DNA of 64,000 nucleotides, taken from contig CM000153.2 in the NCBI GenBank assembly GCA_000004695.1, forward strand, positions 1,600,001 to 1,664,000, in the 5' to 3' direction. A model generated the notes under the pieces. It saw nothing but the letters and a program-made list of their open reading frames with translations, was not told the DNA's origin and ran no database searches. The translations under genes and the position numbers were made by a program. The stretch's first letter is position 1. Each line of letters starts with the position of its first letter. Below are positions 1 through 18,926 of the stretch, piece by piece. This DNA is from Dictyostelium discoideum. Lineage: Eukaryota.

Positions 1-501
1 AATTATTAAATAATTATAATAATTATTATTATTCATTATATTCATATTCAATAAAACAAACTGTAAATAATATATTGTAAATAAATCAATTAGACCATAA
101 AAATAAAAATAAAAATAAAGATAAAAAAAAAAAATAATAATAAAAAAAAAAAAAAAATTTAAATTCAATAAGAACACATAATAGTTTAATATTATTAATT
201 AATTAATAAATAATAAAATTTAAAAGGTTTAAAAAAAATATATCAAAATTTTTTCTTTTTTATATTAGAAATTAAATTATTTATTTTTTATTTATTCTTT
301 TGTTTTTTTTAATAGTAGATAGTTTTATTTTTGTCATAATTGGTTTTTAAACCCTATATGTTTAAAAAAAATTAAAAACGGTGTATTTTAGAATCCTAAA
401 TATCTATCCATTAGCTTTCATTCTCTAAATTTAATTTCTATTTTCTAACCATGTTTTTATAAACCCTGGGATTTCCTTATATATTATTTGTGTTTTTATT
501 T

Positions 502-536
<35 letters not shown>

Positions 537-547
537 AAAAAAAAAAA

Positions 548-727
548 AAAAAACCTAAAATTTCAAATGTCTGTTTAATTCACACTTCTTGATTGTTTGA
601 TAGAACGGAGTGTTTTTTAGAAAAAAAAAAATCAAAAAAAAAAAAAATCAAAAAAAAACATAAAATTTCGAATGTTTGTTTAATTCACACTTCTTGATTG
701 CTTAATGGAACGGAGTGTAAAAAATTA
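548..727. repeat. Tandem duplicated unit of about 70 bp, two copies with a period of about 110 bp
   Basis: Copy 1 is 'cctaaaatttcaaatgtctgtttaattcacacttcttgattgtttgatagaacggagtg'. Copy 2 is 'cataaaatttcgaatgtttgtttaattcacacttcttgattgcttaatggaacggagtg'. They share about 90% identity. Each is preceded by a long poly(A) tract and each contains the imperfect hairpin CACACTTC...GGAGTG. Confidence 0.6.
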
Positions 728-1110
728 TTTTTTATTTTTTAATTTTTTTTTTTTTATTTTATAATTTTTTTTATTTTTTTTTTTTTTTGTTTAATAAAAC
801 AGAATGATTGTTTGGCAATGACCCAGGTTTTGTCATTCCATTTAATTTATTTTTCATTTTTATAATATTTAATTTTATTTTCTTTTTAGCTTTTTTTTCT
901 TATTTTTTTAACTATAAAATAAAAATTAAATTTCATAATTTTATATATTAAATTTTTTTTTATTATTATCTTAAAAATACCAATTATCTCTCTCTCTATA
1001 TATATTAAAAATATTTTATTCTTTTAATTCTATTTTATAAATTTATTTCAAAATAAAAAAGTATGTTTTTAATTTATTTTATTTAATTATAATTAAAAAA
1101 AAAGTTTACT

Positions 1111-1154
<44 letters not shown>

Positions 1155-1232
1155 CTTCATATTTTTAATATTCTATAATTCTATAAATAATAATTATTTT
1201 TAAACAATATTATTCTCCTTGGTTTCTAAAAG

Positions 1233-1607
1233 ATGATTGCTCAACCACCATCAATTTTAACATTAAATATTGACGATAAATTCAATCAACCAATTGTTGT
1301 TGGCGATTTACAAGAAAGTATTACTTCATTGTCATTGGGATTCGAATTTAATCAAACCATTGCACCTGGTGCATTACCAAACAATCTTAGATCATTATCA
1401 TTAGGTCGTAATTTCAATCAAACTATCACTCCAGGTATTTTACCAAATAGTTTAAAAACTTTAACAATTTTAAATCCAGATTTTAATCAAGAATTAATTA
1501 CAGAAGGTTCAATTCCACCATCTTTAGAACGTATTTACTGTGTCTCTGAAAATAAAGAATTTATAAATAATCCAAGTCTTTCAAAATTCATTCAAATTAT
1601 TAAATAA
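1233..1607 (+). CDS. FNIP repeat-containing protein, single exon, 124 aa
   Basis: Track ORF starting with ATG. It carries tandem copies of the Dictyostelium-specific FNIP repeat (...FNQPI..G.LP.SL.SLSLG..FNQ...), seen as 'FEFNQTIAPGALPNNLRSLSLGRNFNQTITPGILPNSLKTL'. Codon usage is A/T third-position biased, typical of Dictyostelium genes. Confidence 0.6.
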   Translation: MIAQPPSILTLNIDDKFNQPIVVGDLQESITSLSLGFEFNQTIAPGALPNNLRSLSLGRNFNQTITPGILPNSLKTLTILNPDFNQELITEGSIPPSLERIYCVSENKEFINNPSLSKFIQIIK

Positions 1608-1803
1608 TTAAAATTTCTTTCATTTTTCGTTTACAAAAAAAAAAAAAAACTGTACAAAAATAAATTATCAAATAAAAAAAAAAAAACAAAAAGCATTTGT
1701 TATTAAATAAAACACTGAATGTATTTTTGTAATCTTTGGTTTATTTGTTTATTTATTTATTTATTTATTTATTTATTATTTATTTTTTTAAATTCTAGAA
1801 CAT

Positions 1804-1840
<37 letters not shown>

Positions 1841-1904
1841 CTTTTCCCAAAAAAAAAAAAAAAAATTATTATCTTAATGGTGGAATAATTGATAATTTTC
1901 CTAT

Positions 1905-2960
1905 TTAATTTTCAGATAGTGGATGTTGTGGGTCACAGGTGTTGAGCTTGAGGATGCTTCTTGTTGTTCTGTTGTTAGTGTACGTTCCCCTCCATTAGAA
2001 TTTTGGGCTCTAAAAGCTTTTAAATCTGATCTGTATCTTATTTTTTTCATTTTTATGTTTGCTCCATCCATTTTACTTGTGAATTACCACCTGTCTCCTC
2101 CCCCTCAAATTCAATATCACATGAAATTGAATCATAATTTAAAAATGAACAATTATATAGTTGTTCATTTGAAAAACAATAAACACTTGAATTATCAGAT
2201 GTGTTTGGAATGAAATTTTCACCATTAATTATAAATTGACCACTTGTGGAATTAAAAACTGGATACTTATTTATTGGGGCTAGGATGGTGATATATCAAC
2301 TTTAAGACCTACTGATGTTTCATCACATACTATTAAAGAAGTTCACTTGATCCATATTCATGTTTTAAAGGGAATAAAAAGTAGTTATTTTCAAATATTA
2401 TTTCTTCAGTACGTGTTGTTTGATTTTCAATTGACATCGAAACTTGATTTCTACCACAACCTTTTGGAATAGGGAATGTGTATGTACGAGTTGGAAACTC
2501 TTTTGAATTTGAATTATCGATACCTATAATAGTTGTATTGTCCATTAATGTAAGAGTTGGTAAACTACTATAATTGAATAAATTTATATTGTATAATGTA
2601 AAGTTTACAAATTGACCAAGTACTGATGGTGATAATGGTGATGATTTAACAAAGAATGATAAATCAATTTGAACAATATTTGATTTTTTACCATTTACAA
2701 TTATATATAATTTTGATTTTTTAATTTGATTTAATGGTGTAAATGATAAAGTGTTTGTTTATCATTTACAATTGTCGTTAAATTAAATTGTTGAATATCA
2801 TCAATATATACTTGAGTTGATTCATTCGTACCCTAGACAGTCACCAATTTATTTAACTTCTCTTAGAGGAAGAATAAAATCAGAAATAAAAGGTACATCA
2901 AATGAAAATAATAATTTATTATCATTTACAATCCATTTATTGATACATTAACTTGTAAAC
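1905..2960 (-). pseudogene. Fragmented protein-like region on the minus strand, probably a decayed or unusually spliced Cys-containing secreted-type protein
   Basis: This island is GC-richer than its surroundings. The minus strand gives several long protein-like stretches in different frames, separated by stops or frameshifts: '...IPVFNSTSGQFIINGENFIPNTSDNSSVYCFSNEQLYNCSFLNYDSISCDIEFEGEETGGNSQVKWMEQT*' (about 2265-2040); 'TLSFTPLNQIKKSKLYIIVNGKK...MDNTTIIGIDNSNSKEFPTRTYTFPIPKGCGRNQVSMSIENQTTRTEEIIFENNYFLFPLKHEYGSSELL*' (about 2760-2333); and 'RAQNSNGGERTLTTEQQEASSSSTPVTHNIHYLKIK*' (about 2045-1905). I could not build a canonical GT-AG model, because the candidate introns are not AT-rich and lack GTAAGT donors. 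Confidence 0.3.
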
Positions 2961-3327
2961 CAATAGAATCATAATTGACTAATTAAATTATAATAATAGA
3001 TTATTAAAAAAAGAAAAATTTAGTGTTATGTGTGTGGTAATTAAATTCTTAATTATTTTTGGCTTTCAATGATTATAAAATCACACACAGTAATAAAGGA
3101 AATTATTGTGTGTTTAATAAATTCATGGGGATTTTTTTGTGTATTTTTTAATTTCCAATTGTAAAAGAATAAAGATTAAAAAACTATAATAAAATTTAAA
3201 AAGAAATTTACAAAACAAATCTTGTTCAATATTTTTCTTTTTTTTTTTTTTTTTTTTTTTTTTATCAATTATTTAATGATTGTGTTTTTATTTTTTTATT
3301 TTATTATATTATATTTTTATTATATTT

Positions 3328-4931
3328 TTAGAATTCACCTCTTGCGAGACGATCCAATAAATCATCTAAAGAATCATCATCAACCACAGTAGTTGAAGTA
3401 GTTGTTGAACTAGTGGTGCCAATTGTATCCAATGAATTTATTGCCATATCATAATTGATTGCATTTGAATTTTGATTAGAGATAGATTGATTAGCCTCTT
3501 TAAGAAGATCATCGAAATTAAAGTTATTTGAATTCATTATTGATTCCAATTCTTCAAAAGTAAATGATTCTTCATTATCATCATTAACAATTACATCATT
3601 TGATTTATTTTCATTTTCAATTGTTTGTTCTTGATGTTGATGTTCTTCCTCAATTGCATGTTCTTCTTCATAATATTCTTCTTGGTGGTGTTGCTCTTGT
3701 TCTTGTTCTTGTTGTTGTTCTTGTTCTTGTTCTTGTTGTTGTTGTTGTTCCTCTTGAATTGGCTCTCGAGGTTGTTCTTGTTCATCATCATATTGTTCAT
3801 AGTGTTGTTGATCTTCTTCATAATACTCCTCTTCTTGTTGTTGAGGTTGTTCTTCAACAACGGGTAAATTAACAGGTTTTTCTGGAACTGGTGGCTTTGT
3901 TCTTGCTGGTGGTGGTGGAGGTGGAGTTTTTTTTGGTGGATTATTATATTGTAATGAAACTGGTCTCTTAATTTGTGGTGAATCAGTTGGTGATGGTGGT
4001 GGTGGAAGAACTGAAATATCAATTGGTGGTGGTGCATCTTGTGATGAAGTAAGTGTTGGTGGTGGTGGAAGAACTGAACCAGATGGTGATAATGTAGTTT
4101 CAGAAGCTGTCGTTGTTGGTGGTTGTTTAATGAATGATCTTGGTGGTGTTGGTGGTTTTTTCAAAGTTTCAACTGGTGGTGGATTCATTTGTTGTAATAA
4201 TTGTGGTGAAACTGGTGGTGGTTCACTACTAGTTCTTGATAATATAGTAGAAGGTGGTGATAATGAACCATCCGTTGTTGTTGTTGTTGTTGTTGGTGGT
4301 GGTTGATTTGGTGATTTTGCAATTGGTCTTTTTGCAACAGGTGGAGGTGGTGCTAATGTAGTTGGTGGTGCTGTTGATGTTGTAGTTGGTGGTGGTACTG
4401 ATGGTCTACCTGGTGGTAAAGTTGGTTTATTAGATGGTGAAAGTTTAGTAGTGGTAGTTGATTTTGGTGGTGGAATTGGTTTAGGATCGCCTGCTTTTGG
4501 TGGTGCTTTTGGTACAAATTGACTTGGAGCTGGTGATTTCTTTAATGCTGTTGGGGGTGGTGATTGAGGTGGTGGTGGTAAACTATTACCACTACTTGAT
4601 AATGCATTATGTGGTAATGAAGGTTGTAGTGGTGATTTTGGTGGTGATGGTAAAACTGTATTATCACTACTAGATGATAATGGTGGTGGTGCAGCAACTG
4701 AACCATTTGCAACCTTTGGTGGAGGTTTTCTTTTTGCCATCATTGGTGCTGGTTTACCAGTGGCATTGGCAGAATTTACTGGTTTTAATTTTGCAATTGT
4801 TGGTTGTGGTGGTTCTGGTACCACATCTCCATTACTATTTTTATTATTATTATTTACATTTGGTGATGGTTTAGCAGCTATCTTTCTTTGTGGTGGTAAT
4901 TTTTTATTTGCAGTATTTTGACTATTATTAC

Positions 4932-10128: not shown

Positions 10129-11458
10129 TTAAGCGGTAGTGGTAACATCTGGAGTAGTTGCGGTGGCATCTCTTGGTTCTGGAACTAAAGCGATTTTAAC
10201 AGAGAGTTCTCTACTTTCAACAGAGAGTTTGTTAAGGGTGAGACCTTTTTGTTGATTGGCAACATCATCGAATTCGACGAAACCGAAACCTTTGCTTCTG
10301 TTGGTGTGTTTGTTGACAATGACATGAGCACTCTTTGGTGAGCAATCTTTGAAGGTTTCTAATAATTTAACATCATCAAAAGAGTATGGAATGTTTCTGA
10401 CAAAGAGGGTAGTGGTACTTTGTTGTCTGTCAGCAGTGTTGGCAGCTGGTCTTCTTTCTCTCTTTGGTTTAGAGGTTTTGGTAGCTGGAGCAGCGGCGGT
10501 TGAGGCAGCAGCAGTGTTGGTGGTGGCATCGGTGTTGGTGGTGGTAGTGGCAGCTTTGACGTCTTTGGTGTTACGTCTGGCATTTCTACGTTTGGTGGTG
10601 GTATTACCATTTAAAGTTGGTGATGCTTCAGTGGATTCAGTAGTAGCATTTTCGCCAGTGGTGGTGCTGGTTGGTTTTGGTGTTCTAGTCTTTCTGGTTG
10701 AAGTTCTCTTTGGTTTGCTTTCGGTACTCTTTTCACGAGCGATTTCAACATTGACTTGTTTACCGTCGAATTCTCTACCATTGATGGCGGCAACAGCTTT
10801 ATTGGCAGTTTCTAAATCTTCCATATCAACGAAACCAAAAGTGTTACTCTTGAACTTCTTTTTAATGATTCTAACACTTAAACTATAATATTTTTTTTAT
10901 TTTAAATAAAATTAATATTAATATTCAAAAAATAAAAAAGAGTTTATATAAAATTATTATTAAAAAAAAAAAAAAATTAAAAAAAAAAACAAGAATTGGG
11001 TTTGAAATTTTTGAGAAAAAAAAAAAATAATTAAATGTTTTGCAAGTTATCCTTTTTTTTTTTTTTTTTTTTTTTTTATTTATTTTTAGGTTTCACCATT
11101 GAGTTTCATTGCATATCACATTGTTTCCTTTGACCTTTTTTTAAAAATTTTTTTTTTTTTTTTGTGTGTGAAAAACGAGCGAAAAAAAACGGGCATAAAA
11201 ATAGTGTGTTTTATTATTGATTTTTTTTAAAAAAAAAAAAAAAAAAAATAGTGTATTGATTTTATGTAGTATTTTTTTTAAAAATATATATTTAGATATA
11301 TAAAAAATTAATTGGTTTTTATTTACTTACACTTTACCGAATTCAGCAAAAGCAGTTTCTAAAGTTGAGGATTCAACATTTTCAGTTAAGTTACCAACAA
11401 AAATTCTGTGGGCTGGAGTAGTTGGGGTGGTGATGGTGGTTTCGGATGGAGCAGACAT
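10129..11458 (-). CDS. RNA-binding protein with two RRM domains. Two exons: 11458..11331 and 10876..10129, about 292 aa
   Basis: Exon 1 reads 'MSAPSETTITTPTTPAHRIFVGNLTENVESSTLETAFAEFGKV' (RNP2 'IFVGNL') and ends at a GTAAGT donor. A 454-nt AT-rich intron follows. Exon 2 reads 'VRIIKKKFKSNTFGFVDMEDLETANKAVAAINGREFDGKQVNVEIA...' (RNP1 'NTFGFVDM'). The second RRM is 'TTLFVRNIPYSFDDVKLLETF...RSKGFGFVEFDD'. A Thr/Ala/Pro-rich linker separates the two. The plus-strand ORF 10349..10888 is antisense noise. Confidence 0.7.
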
Positions 11459-11965: not shown

Positions 11966-12003
<38 letters not shown>

Positions 12004-12299
12004 AATTATCAAATAATTAAAGTATTTAATTATTTATGAATTGAATTTAAATACCTAAATCCAAATTTCATTTTTAATTTTTTTTAATTTTTTTTAATGT
12101 TTTAATAATATTTTTTTAATTCTTTTCCGTTGAATGTTTTTTAATATTCCATTTTTATTTTATTTTTTTTTTTTATTTCCATTGAATGTTTTTGATTATC
12201 TTGGATATTATTTTTAATTAGATTTTTTAATTTCTTTCAAAAAAAATAAATAAATAATAATAATAAAAATAAAAAAGGAGAATAACTTTTTTAATATTC

Positions 12300-12332
<33 letters not shown>

Positions 12333-12540
12333 GTATTCCATTTTTATATTTATTTTCTTTTAATGTTTTTTTATTAAAATTGATTATTTTAGATATTTAT
12401 TTTAATTGGATTTTTTAATTTACTTGTGATTAAAAAAAATAAAATAAAATAAAATAAAATAAAATAAAAAAAAAAAAAAAAAAAAAAAATTTACAATTAA
12501 TATTTTTAATTTAATAAATTAAAAATTTTTTAAGAATACA

Positions 12541-12572
<32 letters not shown>

Positions 12573-12602
12573 TTATTTATCTATTTATTATTTAATCAAG
12601 CT

Positions 12603-13308
12603 CTAAAAGACACCTCCACAAATATTTAAAACACATGCTCCAATAGTGAGTGCAGAGGCAATAACAATTGCAATCCAACTGGTGGTTGGACCTTGGTAAT
12701 AGTTGTCATCAGATCTTGCGAAATCAAATCTACCATTATCATTATTACAAAATTGATCTTTGAATGCATCAGAGTCGTATCTATTTCTGCAATCTTTTTT
12801 TGATGCATTTTGGACACCCTATTAAAAAAAAATTTTAAAAAAAATTAATATTAAAATTATTATTTTTTAATAAATATAAAATAAAATAAATAAAAAAACT
12901 TACCAAAAAGATGAACATTGAAAGTAAACAACAAATAACGGCAAGGATTAAAATGAATTTACCAATCATTGGAAGAATACTACCGAGGATTGGAATTTTT
13001 TCGAGAATACCAAAACCAGAGAGTAAAGTGATAACAGCGGCAATAATAAGGACAATCCAAGCAAGGATATCAAAAGCCAATGAAGCATTAAAGATGGCAT
13101 ACATATTTTTATTATCTTCTTTTACACTCTTTGGAATAGAATTTGTGTATGTTCTGGTGCCATCATCAGTTCTAATTTGATTATATTTAATTAATGATGA
13201 AGTATCACCAATTTCATATTTATACCAATAACTGGCAAAGGCAATAGTACAACAAACTAAAGCCAATAAAATTAAAACAAAGCTAACAAATGCTAAAACT
13301 TTTGCCAT
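12603..13308 (-). CDS. Four-TM membrane protein, paralogue A of a tandem pair. Two exons: 13308..about 12904 and 12818..12603, about 206 aa
   Basis: Exon 1 reads 'MAKVLAFVSFVLILLALVCCTIAFASYWYKYEIGD...MYAIFNASLAFDILAWIVLIIAAVITLL...SMFIFL', followed by a GTAAGT donor. An 85-nt AT-rich intron ends in TAATAG. Exon 2 reads 'GVQNASKKDCRNRYDSDAFKDQFCNNDNGRFDFARSDDNYYQGPTTSWIAIVIASALTIGACVLNICGGVF*'. The splice is supported by collinearity with the unspliced paralogue B ('MFIFCGLSNARKNDCKNQ...SFGFVVAASGLSLIASIIAIVCGVFV'). In this region my reading and the ORF track disagree by 1 nt. Confidence 0.6.
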
Positions 13309-13536
13309 TTTTTTTTTTTTTTTTTTTTTTTTAATAAAATATTTAATATTAAAATAAATTTATTTTTTAAAAATATTATAGGTTTAATAAATAAATAAAA
13401 AAAAAAATTAACTGATTTTTTTTTGTTTTTTTCGTGCCAACTGTTTTTTAAACAATGATTAAAAAAAGTATCAAAATTATTTTTAAAAATAATTTTTCTA
13501 TTAATAAAAAAAAAAAAAAAAAAAAATTAAATAAAA

Positions 13537-13569
<33 letters not shown>

Positions 13570-14013
13570 TATTTTAAACTAATTTATTTGAAAAAAGGAA
13601 CCCCAAACCGCCAGTTAGATTTTTTTAGTTTTAAAATGATTTTAATTTTTTTAATGATTTTAATTTTTTTAATTTTTTTTAATTTTTTTTATTTTTTTTT
13701 TTTTTTTGTTTTTCAGATAACTTTGGAAAATTGTCTGAAAATCATTTTTTGTCTCAAAAATCAAGTGTTTTACGACAGTTAGGGCGCCTACACAGAATTG
13801 TAAATCCTTCAATTTTTCTTTTCTTTTTTTTTTTTTATCTTAATTTATTTTTTCAAATAATATTTATTAATATTTTTTTATTTCTTTAAATTTCTATTTT
13901 TAATCAACATTATTTTATTTTATTTATTTTTTATTTTTTATTTTTTATTTTTTTTTTTTTATTTTTTTTTTTTTTATTTTTATTTTTATTTTTTTTTTTT
14001 TTGGTTGACAGAT

Positions 14014-14774
14014 TTATTTTCCAGAAGTTTCTTCATTCTTAACGAAAACACCACAAACAATTGCAATGATAGAGGCTATGAGAGATAAACCAGAAGCAGC
14101 AACAACAAAACCAAAAGATAGATGAGGACCCCATTTCATAGATTGACCACTAATATCAACATCACCAATAAATGATTTAAAATAGGCACTATCACAAGCA
14201 CCGATTTCATCATCACCATCATTCATTTGATTTTTACAATCATTCTTTCTAGCATTTGATAAACCACAAAATATAAACATTGATATCATTAAGAAAATAG
14301 TTGAAATTATTAAAACAAATTTAGAAATCATATGAATCTTTGGAATTGGAATAAGAATTAATTTACCAACAATTTGTAATGATATTAAAACAGCACCAAT
14401 AATTAATGTAATCCAACCGAGAATATCAAATGCTAAAGATGCATTAAAAATCTCTAATTGGTGTTTCATGGTTTTCTTCACATCACTTGTATAATCTTGG
14501 ACTACACTTTGTTCATTTCCATCCATATTCAATATAAGTTTTGCTTGATTATATTTTAAATATGTAGTTGTTGTTGTAGATATTCCATTACTTGATGTTG
14601 TTTCAATTTTCATATAATACCAATATGCTATATTAAAAAATAAATTAGAATTATTATTATTATTATTATTAATATTGTTTAAGATTTGCAATTCTTACAT
14701 GAAAATGCAATAGTTGCAGCAACGAAACTAAGTACTACAAATACTAATGAAATTAAAGCTGATATTTTAACCAT
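14014..14774 (-). CDS. Four-TM membrane protein, paralogue B. Two exons: 14774..14699 and 14627..14014, about 229 aa
   Basis: Exon 1 reads 'MVKISALISLVFVVLSFVAATIAFS', followed by a GTAAGA donor. A 71-nt AT-rich intron (AAT repeats) ends in AATATAG. Exon 2 reads 'SYWYYMKIETTSS...MKHQLEIFNASLAFDILGWITLIIGAVLIS...' and continues to the stop at 14014. It shares the signature 'IFNASLAFDIL.WI.LII.AV' and the Cys-rich extracellular loop with paralogue A. The hydropathy pattern is four TM helices. Confidence 0.65.
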
Positions 14775-14860
14775 TTTTATAATAAAAAAATTAATAAAAT
14801 AAAATACAATTTAATAAATAATTTATAAATAAATATAATACAAAATGAATACAAGTGATT

Positions 14861-14893
<33 letters not shown>

Positions 14894-15240
14894 GTTAAAT
14901 AATTTTAAAATTGATTTTTATTAATATTTTTTTTTTTTTTAAAATTTAATTTTAATTTTAATTAATTAAAACTTTTGATAAATTATGAAATCAAAAGGTA
15001 AATGTCAGATCTGTTAAAACCGTTTCTAAATTAATTATTTTTGCAGATTATTTTTTTTTTTTCTTTTTCGAAAATCAAAGAACACCATCGATTAAAAAAT
15101 AAAAAAAAATTTTTACAAAAACTAATTAGTTAGGTTAAAAAACTAAGTAAAAATTTTTTTTTTTAAACAAACTGTTTTTTAGATATTTAAAAAACTTTTT
15201 TTTTTTTTTTTTTATATCCCTATACTAAGTGCTTGTGTTT

Positions 15241-15272
<32 letters not shown>

Positions 15273-15546
15273 TTTTTCTGATTTGCAATAGAATGAATTA
15301 ATTCTGACGGTTTTATTTTTTGACATTTTTTTATTATTTTATTTTTTATTTTAATTTTTTTTTTTTCAAAAATAATGTCAACTTTTTATAATAATAATAA
15401 TAATGATAAAAAATTTAATAAAAAAAAAAAAAAAAATAATATTTAATTAATTTGAAATAATTTGGATTTATTTATTTATTTGTTGTGTTTATTATTTTTA
15501 AATTATTATTATTTTATTTTTATTTTTATTATTTTTTTTTTAATTT

Positions 15547-17795: not shown

Positions 17796-18551
17796 TTACA
17801 TCCAATTACTTTTACCAAATTTAGTATTTAATTCAGAGGAACCTCTAACAATATTATTTAAATGTTCTTTATCAACTTTACTTATTTGTAATTCTTCATC
17901 TCTATTGAATGTGTAATCTTTTTTATTACTATTGGATGATGATGATGATGATGAGGATTGCTTTTTTTGGTGCATTGATAACAAGGAAGAGGATCTGTTT
18001 TTATCATTATATTGCTTCATTTTTTCTTCAGTTTCTTGTTGTCTTAATTTTTCAAATAATTGTTTAGAACCTTCAACAGGAGTAGTTCCTCCTGTTGTTG
18101 TTGTTGTTGTTGTTGATATTGAACCAACATTACCTTTTTGACTGAATTGTCTATTTGACATTGAATCAATTCTACCAGTTGGCATCATTGTCATCCATTC
18201 CTCTCTTTTTGTTGTTTTATTTGTACTATCAGTATCACCATTTTTATTATTTTCAATCATATTTCTTACTCTCTCCCATTCTGATTTTGTATCTTCTTCA
18301 TCTTCTTCACTACTATCATCATCATCATCATTATTACTATTATGATTACTATCATTATTATTTGTATTATATCTTGATGGTCCAATTGATGGACCAATTG
18401 TTGGTCCAATTCTAGATGGGCCAATTGCTTTTTTATTATTATTATTAAATTTATCATTATCATTATTATTATTGTCATCATCTAATCTTGGACCAATAAC
18501 TCTTTTACTTATAGATGGAGGTGGTTGTGGTCCTAGTATTATATTATTATC

Positions 18552-18613
<62 letters not shown>

Positions 18614-18926
18614 CAGTTTCATCATCTAATCTTGGGCCAATAATTTTCTTTGTTGGTGGCAGTTGTGGAGATAGTATTGTAGTTTTATCATTGTCAGTTT
18701 CATTTAGTGATGGACCAATAACAGACTTTTTTGGTGGAGGTTGAGGTGATTGAATATCATCATTATTTAATTGTTTGTAGTTGTTGTTGTTATTGTCATT
18801 GTTATTATTTTCTTCTAATGTACGTTTTTTATTGTTGTTTGAATCTCTAAAGTTTACTTCAGTTTTTTGTTCATTATCATTGTTTTGTGTGGTTGGTGGC
18901 GGTCTGGCTGGTCCGATAAAACTCAT
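17796..18926 (-). CDS. GPALPP-motif protein 1 homologue (DUF3752 C-terminal domain), single exon, 376 aa
   Basis: Repeated '(V/I)IGP(S/R)L' motifs sit between acidic and Asn-rich spacers, corresponding to the GPALPP motifs. The C-terminus 'REEWMTMMPTGR...SLLSMHQKK...YTFNRDEELQISKVDKEHLNNIVRGSSELNTKFGKSNWM*' is collinear with human GPALPP1 (KIAA1704): 'ESWMTELPPE...SLMDIHHKK...IPFDRDKDLKVNRFDEAQKKALIKKSRELNTRFSHGKGNMFL'. Overlapping opposite-strand ORFs (18155-18744) are repeat artefacts. Confidence 0.7.

Follow-up and report, generated by a model that had tools for sequence, protein, structure and literature searches.

Two adjacent genes of Dictyostelium discoideum, here called A and B, appear to be old tandem paralogues in a family of predicted claudin-fold membrane proteins, in which one intron (I1) would be ancestral and a second (I2) would have been gained in the A lineage; we give this reading as a whole a probability of about 0.75. 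The pair lies within the 64-kb stretch of DNA that was analysed (the window), and all coordinates below are those of the window.

The gene pair and its gene models

Genes A and B were read from the sequence and spliced in silico; they are tandem neighbours and both are encoded on the minus strand, as are all of the features given below. Gene A (13308..12603) encodes 206 amino acids and has a single intron at 12903..12819, and gene B (14774..14014) encodes 229 amino acids and has a single intron at 14698..14628. Exon 1 of A (12904..13308, codons 1–135, 30% GC) encodes transmembrane helix (TM) 1, extracellular loop 1 with its four beta strands, TM2 and TM3. It is followed by intron I2 (12819..12903; 85 nt, GTAAGT..AG, 3.5% GC), which is in phase 0 between L135 and G136, and by exon 2 (12603..12818, codons 136–206 plus stop, 36% GC), which encodes loop 2 with C145 and C159, the fifth beta strand and TM4. 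Exon 1 of B (14699..14774) contains codons 1–25 and the first base of codon 26 and encodes TM1; intron I1 (14628..14698; 71 nt, GTAAGA..AG, 11% GC) interrupts Ser26 in phase 1, and exon 2 (14014..14627) runs from the remainder of codon 26 to codon 229 and the stop, and encodes loop 1, TM2, TM3, loop 2, TM4 and a cytoplasmic tail, KNEETSGK. Both introns are exactly at module boundaries, I1 between TM1 and loop 1 and I2 between TM3 and loop 2. The GC profile of the region (exons 25–40%, introns about 10%) supports the exon boundaries.

A first-pass annotation of this DNA had described two adjacent minus-strand genes for paralogous four-TM proteins of these lengths, and its models were reproduced exactly. 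It had also placed the introns differently in the two genes, after codon 25 in B (AFS|SYWYY) and near the C-terminus in A (MFIFL|GVQNAS), and this holds on alignment. The site homologous to I1 (alignment column 29) is the intron-less codon 26 of A (AGT, Ser; 13231..13233), and the site homologous to I2 (column 166) is contiguous in B, as had been noted, at codons C146-G147 (TGT|GGT, 14263..14268).

The A and B proteins are 39% identical over their full length (BLASTP E = 4e-42), a similarity far beyond chance. Spliced A matches XP_638768.1 (DDB_G0284169, Q54Q29) of D. discoideum AX4 exactly, and spliced B likewise matches XP_638769.1 (DDB_G0284119, Q54Q28); the deposited annotation of both is "hypothetical". 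A and B are therefore correctly predicted genes that were annotated before this analysis. Neither gene, nor either UniProt accession, was found mentioned in the literature searched. A tblastn search with the family found no third copy or relic of it in the 64-kb window. A 199-amino acid Logan member of the B cluster (P0018) is uninformative as transcript evidence, since it equals B from Met31 and so is the output expected of a gene caller on unspliced genomic DNA. When 12000..15500 was scanned against Rfam at E≤1, no RNA family turned up, and the GC-richer islands that separate B from A are thus not known non-coding RNAs. A targeted search of the intergenic region gave a single conserved block, upstream of A, and unfiltered blastn of this region returned low-complexity noise and nothing else.

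A dictyostelid family with a predicted claudin fold

A profile search found 94 cluster representatives at E≤1e-3, 49 of them at E≤1e-10. Of 20 representatives that were looked up, 15 have a named source, which in every case is Dictyostelium, Polysphondylium, Tieghemostelium, Cavenderia or Heterostelium; the family, made up of small tetraspan membrane proteins some 200 amino acids long, is dictyostelid-wide. Its members have the motifs S-Y-W-Y after TM1, (N/K)ASLAF before TM2, D-C...C in loop 2 and G-P-x-x-(S/G)-W before TM4, and both A and B have full-length profile similarity to this DDB_G0284169-like family, including these motifs. Conservation among 51 aligned sequences reaches at least 90% at W28, D144, P179 and W183 and is complete at C159, and in 14 group-4 sequences C145 and C159 (A numbering) are both invariant. 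In the predicted structure this cysteine pair is probably disulfide-bonded, stapling together two short helices of loop 2. A conserved N-A-S sequon immediately precedes TM2. The IFNASLAFDIL motif, N-terminal hydrophobic helix and cysteine pair that had been reported as shared are all present in A and B, and the cysteines do lie in an extracellular loop, the second one. The N-terminal helix had been called a signal/TM helix; it is modelled as TM1 of the four-helix bundle and not as a cleavable signal peptide.

The AlphaFold2 model made from the 51-sequence alignment (pLDDT 94.6, pTM 0.87) is a bundle of four TM helices with an extracellular beta sheet of five strands (loop 1 contributes four of them and loop 2 one), the arrangement by which the claudin fold was recognised. 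The best 50 Foldseek matches are all claudin-superfamily or designed-claudin-fold chains (probability 1.00), and the family is predicted to adopt the claudin/PMP22/MP20/TARP fold. The comparison structures were claudin-15 (4p79), MP20 (9cbv), TARP gamma-2, -7 and -8, and LHFPL4 (9faj). The A and B proteins are only 11–16% identical to the claudin/PMP22/EMP/MP20/TARP/LHFPL superfamily (PF00822, PF13903, PF10242), and a profile search of PDB sequences found nothing significant, the best relevant match being claudin-3 at E = 0.8. Claudins have the signature W-(x)n-GLW-x-x-C-(x)8-10-C and a disulfide in extracellular loop 1. In contrast, neither a cysteine nor GLW occurs in loop 1 of A (residues 26–75) or in that of B, and the family instead has its D-C...C pair in loop 2, which bears two extra short helices.

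When A, B and the 51 family members were scanned against Pfam, all claudin-clan matches fell under the cut-offs and were spread over Amastin, SUR7, MARVEL, Claudin_2, PMP22_Claudin and L_HMGIC_fpl, so no family is assignable by sequence. Claudin_2 scores 14.0 bits with A and 10.8 bits with B (cut-off 29.1), and at E<0.01 PF13903 matches two of the 51 members and PF00822 one. The best, though still sub-threshold, Pfam matches are to fungal SUR7/PalI and kinetoplastid amastins, which are likewise non-metazoan tetraspans and share their Pfam clan with the claudins. SUR7 (PF06687, gathering score 29.6) gives 21.8 bits (E = 1.6e-4) with A and 6.5 bits with B and has matches in 5 of the 51 members, and amastin (PF07344) has matches in 6 of the 51 (best E = 3.1e-5); with matches scattered over several clan members, no single family is indicated. 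The loop 1 cysteine motifs that are presumably characteristic of SUR7/PalI and amastins are absent from the A/B family. The features of tetraspanins (PF00335), a large second extracellular loop with a CCG motif and the tetraspanin fold, were not found.

Synteny and age of the duplication

The gene order in the window is DUF3752 gene, 347-amino acid gene, B, A, RRM gene, Band_7 gene, and it is identical at the group-4 loci. In D. purpureum the order is B-like gene, pseudogene, P0019 (DICPUDRAFT_159660), P0053, RRM gene, Band_7 gene, and in P. violaceum the DUF3752 gene adjoins a family gene. The D. purpureum B-like gene scores higher with a B HMM than with an A HMM (127.4 and 114.5 bits, respectively), and P0019 scores higher with the A HMM (156.7 and 93.1 bits with A and B, respectively). 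Trees were bootstrapped neighbour-joining trees on Kimura distances. In the first of these P0019 fell outside A+B+C with a bootstrap of just 21–31%, and when the B-like gene was included P0019 joined A+C and the B-like gene joined B, with deep bootstraps of 13–49%. Because the deep bootstraps are weak, the orthology of P0019 with A, and that of the outgroup genes, leans on synteny and HMM scores.

A B-like gene with I1 only, followed in syntenic order by an A-like gene, indicates that the A/B duplication predates the split between D. discoideum and D. purpureum; it may be older still. The first-pass annotation had seen the pair as an example of intron gain or loss after tandem duplication; the turnover stands and its polarity can now be given (below), and the duplication itself is not recent.

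Distribution and history of the two introns

Exact spliced mapping places intron I1 (column 29, phase 1) in four B orthologues. It was also read from the DNA in D. citrinum B, and it is present in both P0019 and the B-like gene of D. purpureum and, at the identical column and phase, in T. lacteum, H. album and P. violaceum. Intron I2 (column 166, phase 0) is present in six A orthologues, D. firmibasis paralogue C, D. discoideum paralogue P0036 and D. purpureum P0019, which therefore has both introns; T. lacteum, P. violaceum, H. album PPL_09458 and C. fasciculata DFA_05714 lack I2. The last of these has neither I1 nor I2 and has two different introns instead, indicating frequent intron turnover in the family. 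The 5' intron of D. purpureum P0053 is shifted by 1 nt, to phase 0, and D. firmibasis P0028, the sister of B, which was included in the mapping, has no introns at all. Alignment of orthologues had been proposed as the way to date the intron events, and it places I1 across other genera and I2 only in group-4 A-like and C-like genes.

D. purpureum, T. lacteum, P. violaceum and H. album all have I1 at one column and in one phase, and this comparison of gene structures indicates that I1 is ancestral across Dictyostelia and was kept by B and lost from A, and we infer that codon 26 of A (13231..13233) is the place of that loss. A gain of I1 in B was rejected, as other genera have this intron. Since I2 was found in no genes but the A-like and C-like ones of group 4, parsimony favours its gain in the group-4 A-type lineage, and in the A lineage I2 was probably gained first and I1 lost afterwards. 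The family ancestor would thus have had I1, and B would retain this old structure. By parsimony I2 would have arisen in the A-type lineage of group-4 Dictyostelium after A and B separated, giving an A-type gene with both introns, of which D. purpureum DICPUDRAFT_159660 would be a surviving intermediate. Precise loss of I1 would then have occurred in the D. discoideum-complex lineage and in related C-group paralogues.

The most serious competitor, which we consider improbable though worth weighing, is that the ancestor of A and B already had both introns, and that A dropped I1 and B dropped I2 with no gain at all. A two-intron gene does exist (P0019), and the first tree put it outside A+B+C; the intron-less P0028 indicates that losses do happen in the B clade, and the sequence TTG|GG at the I2 site of intron-less genes fits a precise loss as well as a pre-gain state. 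Against such reciprocal loss, the D. purpureum B-like gene upstream of P0019 already has I1 only, so the A/B split predates D. purpureum and P0019 is the positional A orthologue, which is also where the second tree puts it. Moreover, I2 is in none of the four genes examined outside group 4, and if it were ancestral, several additional losses would have to be assumed. The intron survey outside group 4 covered five genes, of 94 cluster representatives, and the presence of I2 in an older family member would turn the proposed gain into further losses.

Intron loss and gain between paralogues is a general phenomenon, and an ancestral I1 with a gained I2 is nothing unusual in kind: one duplicate precisely lost an intron, there is, in the other copy, a lineage-restricted intron at a G|G site, and a two-intron intermediate survives in a sister species. 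Intron loss mediated by reverse transcripts is expected to be 3'-biased. Gene A, unlike this, lost its 5' intron and kept the 3' one, though a single case proves nothing.

Splicing of gene A

The exact match to the deposited models, conservation and selection together argue that gene A is spliced as annotated. Exon 2 has a dN/dS of 0.22–0.39 against orthologues, indistinguishable from the 0.23–0.42 of exon 1; this purifying selection indicates that exon 2 is not a relic. Its frame, length and stop are constant in all seven 206-amino acid A-type proteins (that of the window included), among which the C-terminal 32 residues are nearly invariant, and six species or strains agree in the codon at which the GT..AG boundaries of the intron lie.

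Unspliced A remains open for 22 codons of the intron, to an in-frame stop at 12835–12837. The first-pass annotation was right about this frame, and had taken from it that a second isoform, ending in VSFFIYFILYLLKNNNFNINFF, was possible. In many protists alternative splicing most often takes the form of intron retention, which favours such an isoform. The read-through peptides of six A orthologues, however, range from 9 to 32 codons (9, 11, 16, 26 and 32 among them) and are alike solely in VSFF, which is imposed by the GTAAGTTT splice donor, and the aligned introns are 37–64% identical compared with 80–87% for exon 2. The open frame looks accidental, retention would give a truncated three-TM product that is not maintained by selection, and a functional second isoform is very unlikely. 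Least credible of all is that A is never spliced and ends at 12835 as a 157-amino acid protein, with the homology at 12818..12603 a dead relic (the outcome that had been named as fatal to the original interpretation), since the open 22 codons are outweighed by the selection on exon 2, its conserved reading frame and splice boundaries and the low GC content of the intron next to it, and since the product would have neither TM4 nor the fifth strand of the confidently modelled fold.

Possible functions and significance

Like other claudin-fold proteins, the members of this family may be plasma-membrane scaffolds, adhesion-type proteins or auxiliary subunits. A search for literature on claudin-like proteins in Dictyostelium or on the claudin superfamily in Amoebozoa found nothing relevant. 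A bolder proposal, which we regard as a long shot, is that the family is the missing claudin-type membrane component of dictyostelid multicellularity and that I2 is a clean, datable group-4 gain. If so, claudin-fold proteins from an expansion specific to this lineage would organise cell-cell contacts or membrane domains, whether in the aggregate, the tip or the epithelium-like layer, and the claudin fold would have been independently recruited for multicellular tissue organisation outside animals; the gain of I2 would be datable within group-4 Dictyostelium, with the two-intron intermediate still alive in D. purpureum.

The intron history is a small, well-resolved textbook example, tidy but ordinary turnover that changes no concept. 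One family at one syntenic locus offers an ancestral intron, a lineage-restricted intron, a two-intron intermediate, an intron-less paralogue and an exon-deleted pseudogene, and for an intron-poor, AT-rich genome this is one more data point on intron turnover. For annotation, two "hypothetical proteins" and their relatives become describable as a dictyostelid claudin-fold family that has no Pfam model, and the family is a set of candidates for tetraspan proteins that organise cell contacts or membrane domains in social amoebae.

Structure and surroundings of the tandem genes

The models of the tandem paralogues A (DDB_G0284169, minus strand 13308..12603) and B (DDB_G0284119, minus strand 14774..14014) are based on a reading of the minus strand from 15100 to 12300 and its splicing in silico. 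Gene B (ATG at 14774) consists of exon 1 (14774..14699), the 71 nt intron I1 (14698..14628; GTAAGA...TAG, 11% GC, phase 1 in Ser26, AFS|SYWYY) and exon 2 (14627..14014), and encodes 229 aa; gene A (ATG at 13308) consists of exon 1 (13308..12904), the 85 nt intron I2 (12903..12819; GTAAGT...TAG, 3.5% GC, phase 0, MFIFL|GVQNAS) and exon 2 (12818..12603), and encodes 206 aa. The exons are 28–36% GC, versus 12% in the 705 nt B-A spacer, and the two proteins are 39% identical in an end-to-end alignment (E 4e-42). The coordinates, lengths and junction peptides of the first-pass annotation are all correct by this re-reading, and its observation on the pair is real and accurately described. Exact-sequence look-up in GenBank and UniProt identifies the products as XP_638768.1/DDB_G0284169/Q54Q29 (A) and XP_638769.1/DDB_G0284119/Q54Q28 (B) of D. 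discoideum AX4, deposited as "hypothetical" or "transmembrane protein", so these gene models and their introns were in the public record already; a literature search found no paper that mentions either gene ID or accession.

A tblastn search of the whole 64 kb window found no family copy besides A and B. A is followed downstream by an RRM gene (10129..10824, minus strand; RRM_1 E 6e-16) and, beyond it on the opposite strand, by a Band_7-type ORF. Upstream of B is a multi-exon gene at ~15.7–16.6 kb, by position the ~347 aa gene called in related species, and further upstream a DUF3752 gene (17796..18926, minus strand; Pfam E 9e-10), a 376 aa ORF whose C-terminal DUF3752 domain is accompanied by Asn runs and repeated (I/V)IGP(S/R)L motifs. 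A DUF3752 gene is directly upstream of a family gene in P. violaceum as well, so this linkage may be old. Within an AT-rich spacer that otherwise does not align, D. dimigraforme, D. citrinum and D. cf. discoideum all conserve, upstream of A, the block TAATCATTGTTTAAAAAACAGTTGGCACG (~13425–13462, minus strand) that precedes the ATG of A by 130–150 nt; it is probably a promoter element. The B-A spacer also has GC-richer islands (27–30% GC) at 13715–13830 and 13590–13625, which have no match in Rfam and whose conservation extends no further than the closest relative.

Family members and their introns

Word-indexed searches found orthologues of A and B in D. cf. discoideum, D. citrinum, D. dimigraforme and D. 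firmibasis, and a third paralogue, C, in D. firmibasis. Exact spliced alignment to the locus DNA shows that each A orthologue, like paralogue C, has a single intron where A has its own (phase 0, ...FIFL|G), and that each B orthologue has a single intron at the site used in B (phase 1, AFS|SYWYY). D. citrinum carries two tandem A copies (locus L003, 5001–7218), both with I2 (102 and 99 nt), the result of a recent extra duplication absent from D. discoideum. The deposited D. citrinum B protein (P0013) is truncated to 203 aa; its exon 1 and I1, the latter expanded by a long (AAT)n microsatellite, are present upstream (L003 3406–3660).

A profile search of 1.8 billion representatives gave 94 relatives at E<=1e-3. 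Twenty were looked up, and the 15 with a source name are all dictyostelid, the named relatives coming from D. purpureum, Polysphondylium violaceum, Tieghemostelium lacteum, Cavenderia fasciculata and Heterostelium album; the other five are from metagenome assemblies. The metagenome relatives P0057, P0070, P0078, P0105 and P0108 are weaker matches (E 1e-14 to 1e-3) on JGI/ENA contigs of up to 22 kb, so the family may reach beyond the sequenced dictyostelids. The long deposited proteins P0025, P0034, P0037 and P0043 (2437, 549, 873 and 622 aa) each join an entire family domain, located at one terminus, to unrelated regions (TPR/clustered-mitochondria-like, BTB-like, ankyrin repeats), and are probably merged gene models, not real fusions.

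When the introns of further members are all placed on one alignment, I1 (column 29, phase 1) is found in the B clade, D. purpureum P0019 (DICPUDRAFT_159660), T. lacteum P0020, P. violaceum P0029 and H. album P0024, and I2 (column 166, phase 0) in the A clade, the C group (D. firmibasis P0007, D. discoideum P0036) and, again, P0019. D. purpureum P0053 has an intron 1 nt off I1 and in phase 0, C. fasciculata P0021 has two introns, both different from I1 and I2, H. album P0024 has one extra intron, and D. firmibasis P0028 has none. This intron-less D. firmibasis member (RB653_003542; locus L010, CM069765.1 3001–3648; 215 aa) lies at an unrelated locus adjoining an ABC transporter, is the sister of the B clade in an NJ tree, and may be a retro-copy.

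The D. purpureum locus

The key to the intron history is D. purpureum locus L006 (GL871533.1). Its synteny with the window is shown by the shared RRM and Band_7 genes at its end, and it holds four tandem family copies in the order B-like gene, pseudogene, P0019 and P0053. The B-like gene (2076–2862, ATG at 2076, 231 aa) has I1 at 2149..2239 in phase 1, lacks I2, and ends in a tail, TTETPNH, that resembles the tail of B; it is unannotated, buried in a merged 389 aa deposited model (186–3949) that looks wrong. P0019 has both introns. In the pseudogene (3687–4104) exon 1 stops at the I1 donor and, ~140 nt on, the last exon begins precisely where the I2 acceptor lies; there is no middle exon, and the phases (1 and 0) are incompatible. 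The pseudogene shows that D. purpureum duplicated a copy with both introns. The gene order B-like, A-like, RRM is common to L006 and D. discoideum, and three further comparisons agree with it: the B-like gene scores 127.4 bits with the B-HMM versus 114.5 with the A-HMM; P0019 strongly prefers the A-HMM (156.7 versus 93.1 bits); and in NJ trees built with the B-like gene included, this gene falls with B, and P0019 with A and C (bootstrap weak, 29–49%).

Intron history and age of the duplication

I1 is ancestral to the family, because it is common to both subfamilies and to four other genera, and its loss from A and the C group after the D. purpureum split and before the D. firmibasis split is well supported. 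Among the members examined, I2 is seen in group-4 A-type and C-type genes only; all four non-group-4 genes lack it, as do the B-type genes of D. discoideum and D. purpureum. Parsimony favours a single gain of I2 in the A-type lineage, prior to the split from D. purpureum, followed by the loss of I1, with B retaining the original intron structure. If I2 were instead ancestral to A and B and lost in B, for which the weak tree and the small sample of distant members leave room, more events would be needed; the I2 site is TTG|GG in intron-bearing and intron-less genes alike, which is compatible with gain or loss. The first-pass annotation had ascribed the difference between the paralogues to intron gain or loss, and the orthologue intron maps resolve this into loss of I1 from A and probable gain of I2. 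Such differences between paralogues are an ordinary phenomenon.

By the intron and locus comparison with D. purpureum, the A/B duplication is old, at least as old as the D. discoideum/D. purpureum divergence. It may predate that divergence, as H. album P0024 and P0048 score higher with the B-HMM than with the A-HMM, the two scores are about equal for C. fasciculata P0027, and the C-terminal tail is B-like in each of the three.

Exon 2 of gene A

By the Nei-Gojobori method, dN/dS between D. discoideum A and four orthologues is 0.23–0.42 in exon 1. The idea that exon 2 is a dead relic is rejected by its own dN/dS (0.22–0.39), by its nucleotide identity to the orthologues (80–87%, versus only 37–64% in the intron) and by the constancy of the A-type proteins: each of the seven, counting D. 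discoideum A itself, has 206 aa and a C-terminus that hardly varies. A second, unspliced isoform of A had also been proposed; the read-through peptide is 22 codons long in D. discoideum and 9, 11, 16, 26 and 32 in other orthologues, and these peptides share only VSFF, the residues that the splice donor encodes, so those compared give no sign of a maintained second isoform.

Predicted fold

In a Pfam scan A and B match no family at threshold, the best hits being SUR7 (for A, E 1.6e-4, 21.8 bits, cut-off 29.6) and Claudin_2. The weak matches of 51 members are scattered among Amastin, SUR7, MARVEL, Claudin_2, PMP22_Claudin and L_HMGIC_fpl, most of which belong to the claudin-like clan. AlphaFold2 gave pLDDT 79.8 with 14 sequences, and pLDDT 94.6 and pTM 0.87 with 51. 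The model contains TM1 (residues 2–25), four beta strands (29–57), a short helix (60–65), TM2 (67–99), TM3 (106–135), two short loop-2 helices (137–148 and 152–160) that hold the conserved C145 and C159, strands at 170–172 and 175–179, and TM4 (181–202), and these elements predict a claudin fold for the family. Unlike claudins, the family has no W-GLW-C-C motif and no loop-1 cysteine, and with scores below the Pfam cut-offs it falls outside the claudins as defined by sequence. The N-terminal "signal/TM helix" of the first-pass annotation is, in the model, TM1 of the helix bundle, and its Cys-containing loop corresponds to loop 2. I1 and I2, at the ends of TM1 and TM3, both lie exactly at helix/loop boundaries.

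Significance

Claudin-fold proteins include the tight-junction claudins, lens MP20, PMP22, the TARP and LHFPL channel auxiliaries and fungal Sur7. By analogy with these, the family proteins might be plasma-membrane proteins with a glycosylated beta-sheet face for lateral or trans interactions, though confidence in any specific role is low. Beyond the public gene models, the analysis adds the polarity and dating of the intron events, a two-intron intermediate in D. purpureum and, from the predicted structure, a claudin-like fold-level annotation for a Pfam-less dictyostelid family.
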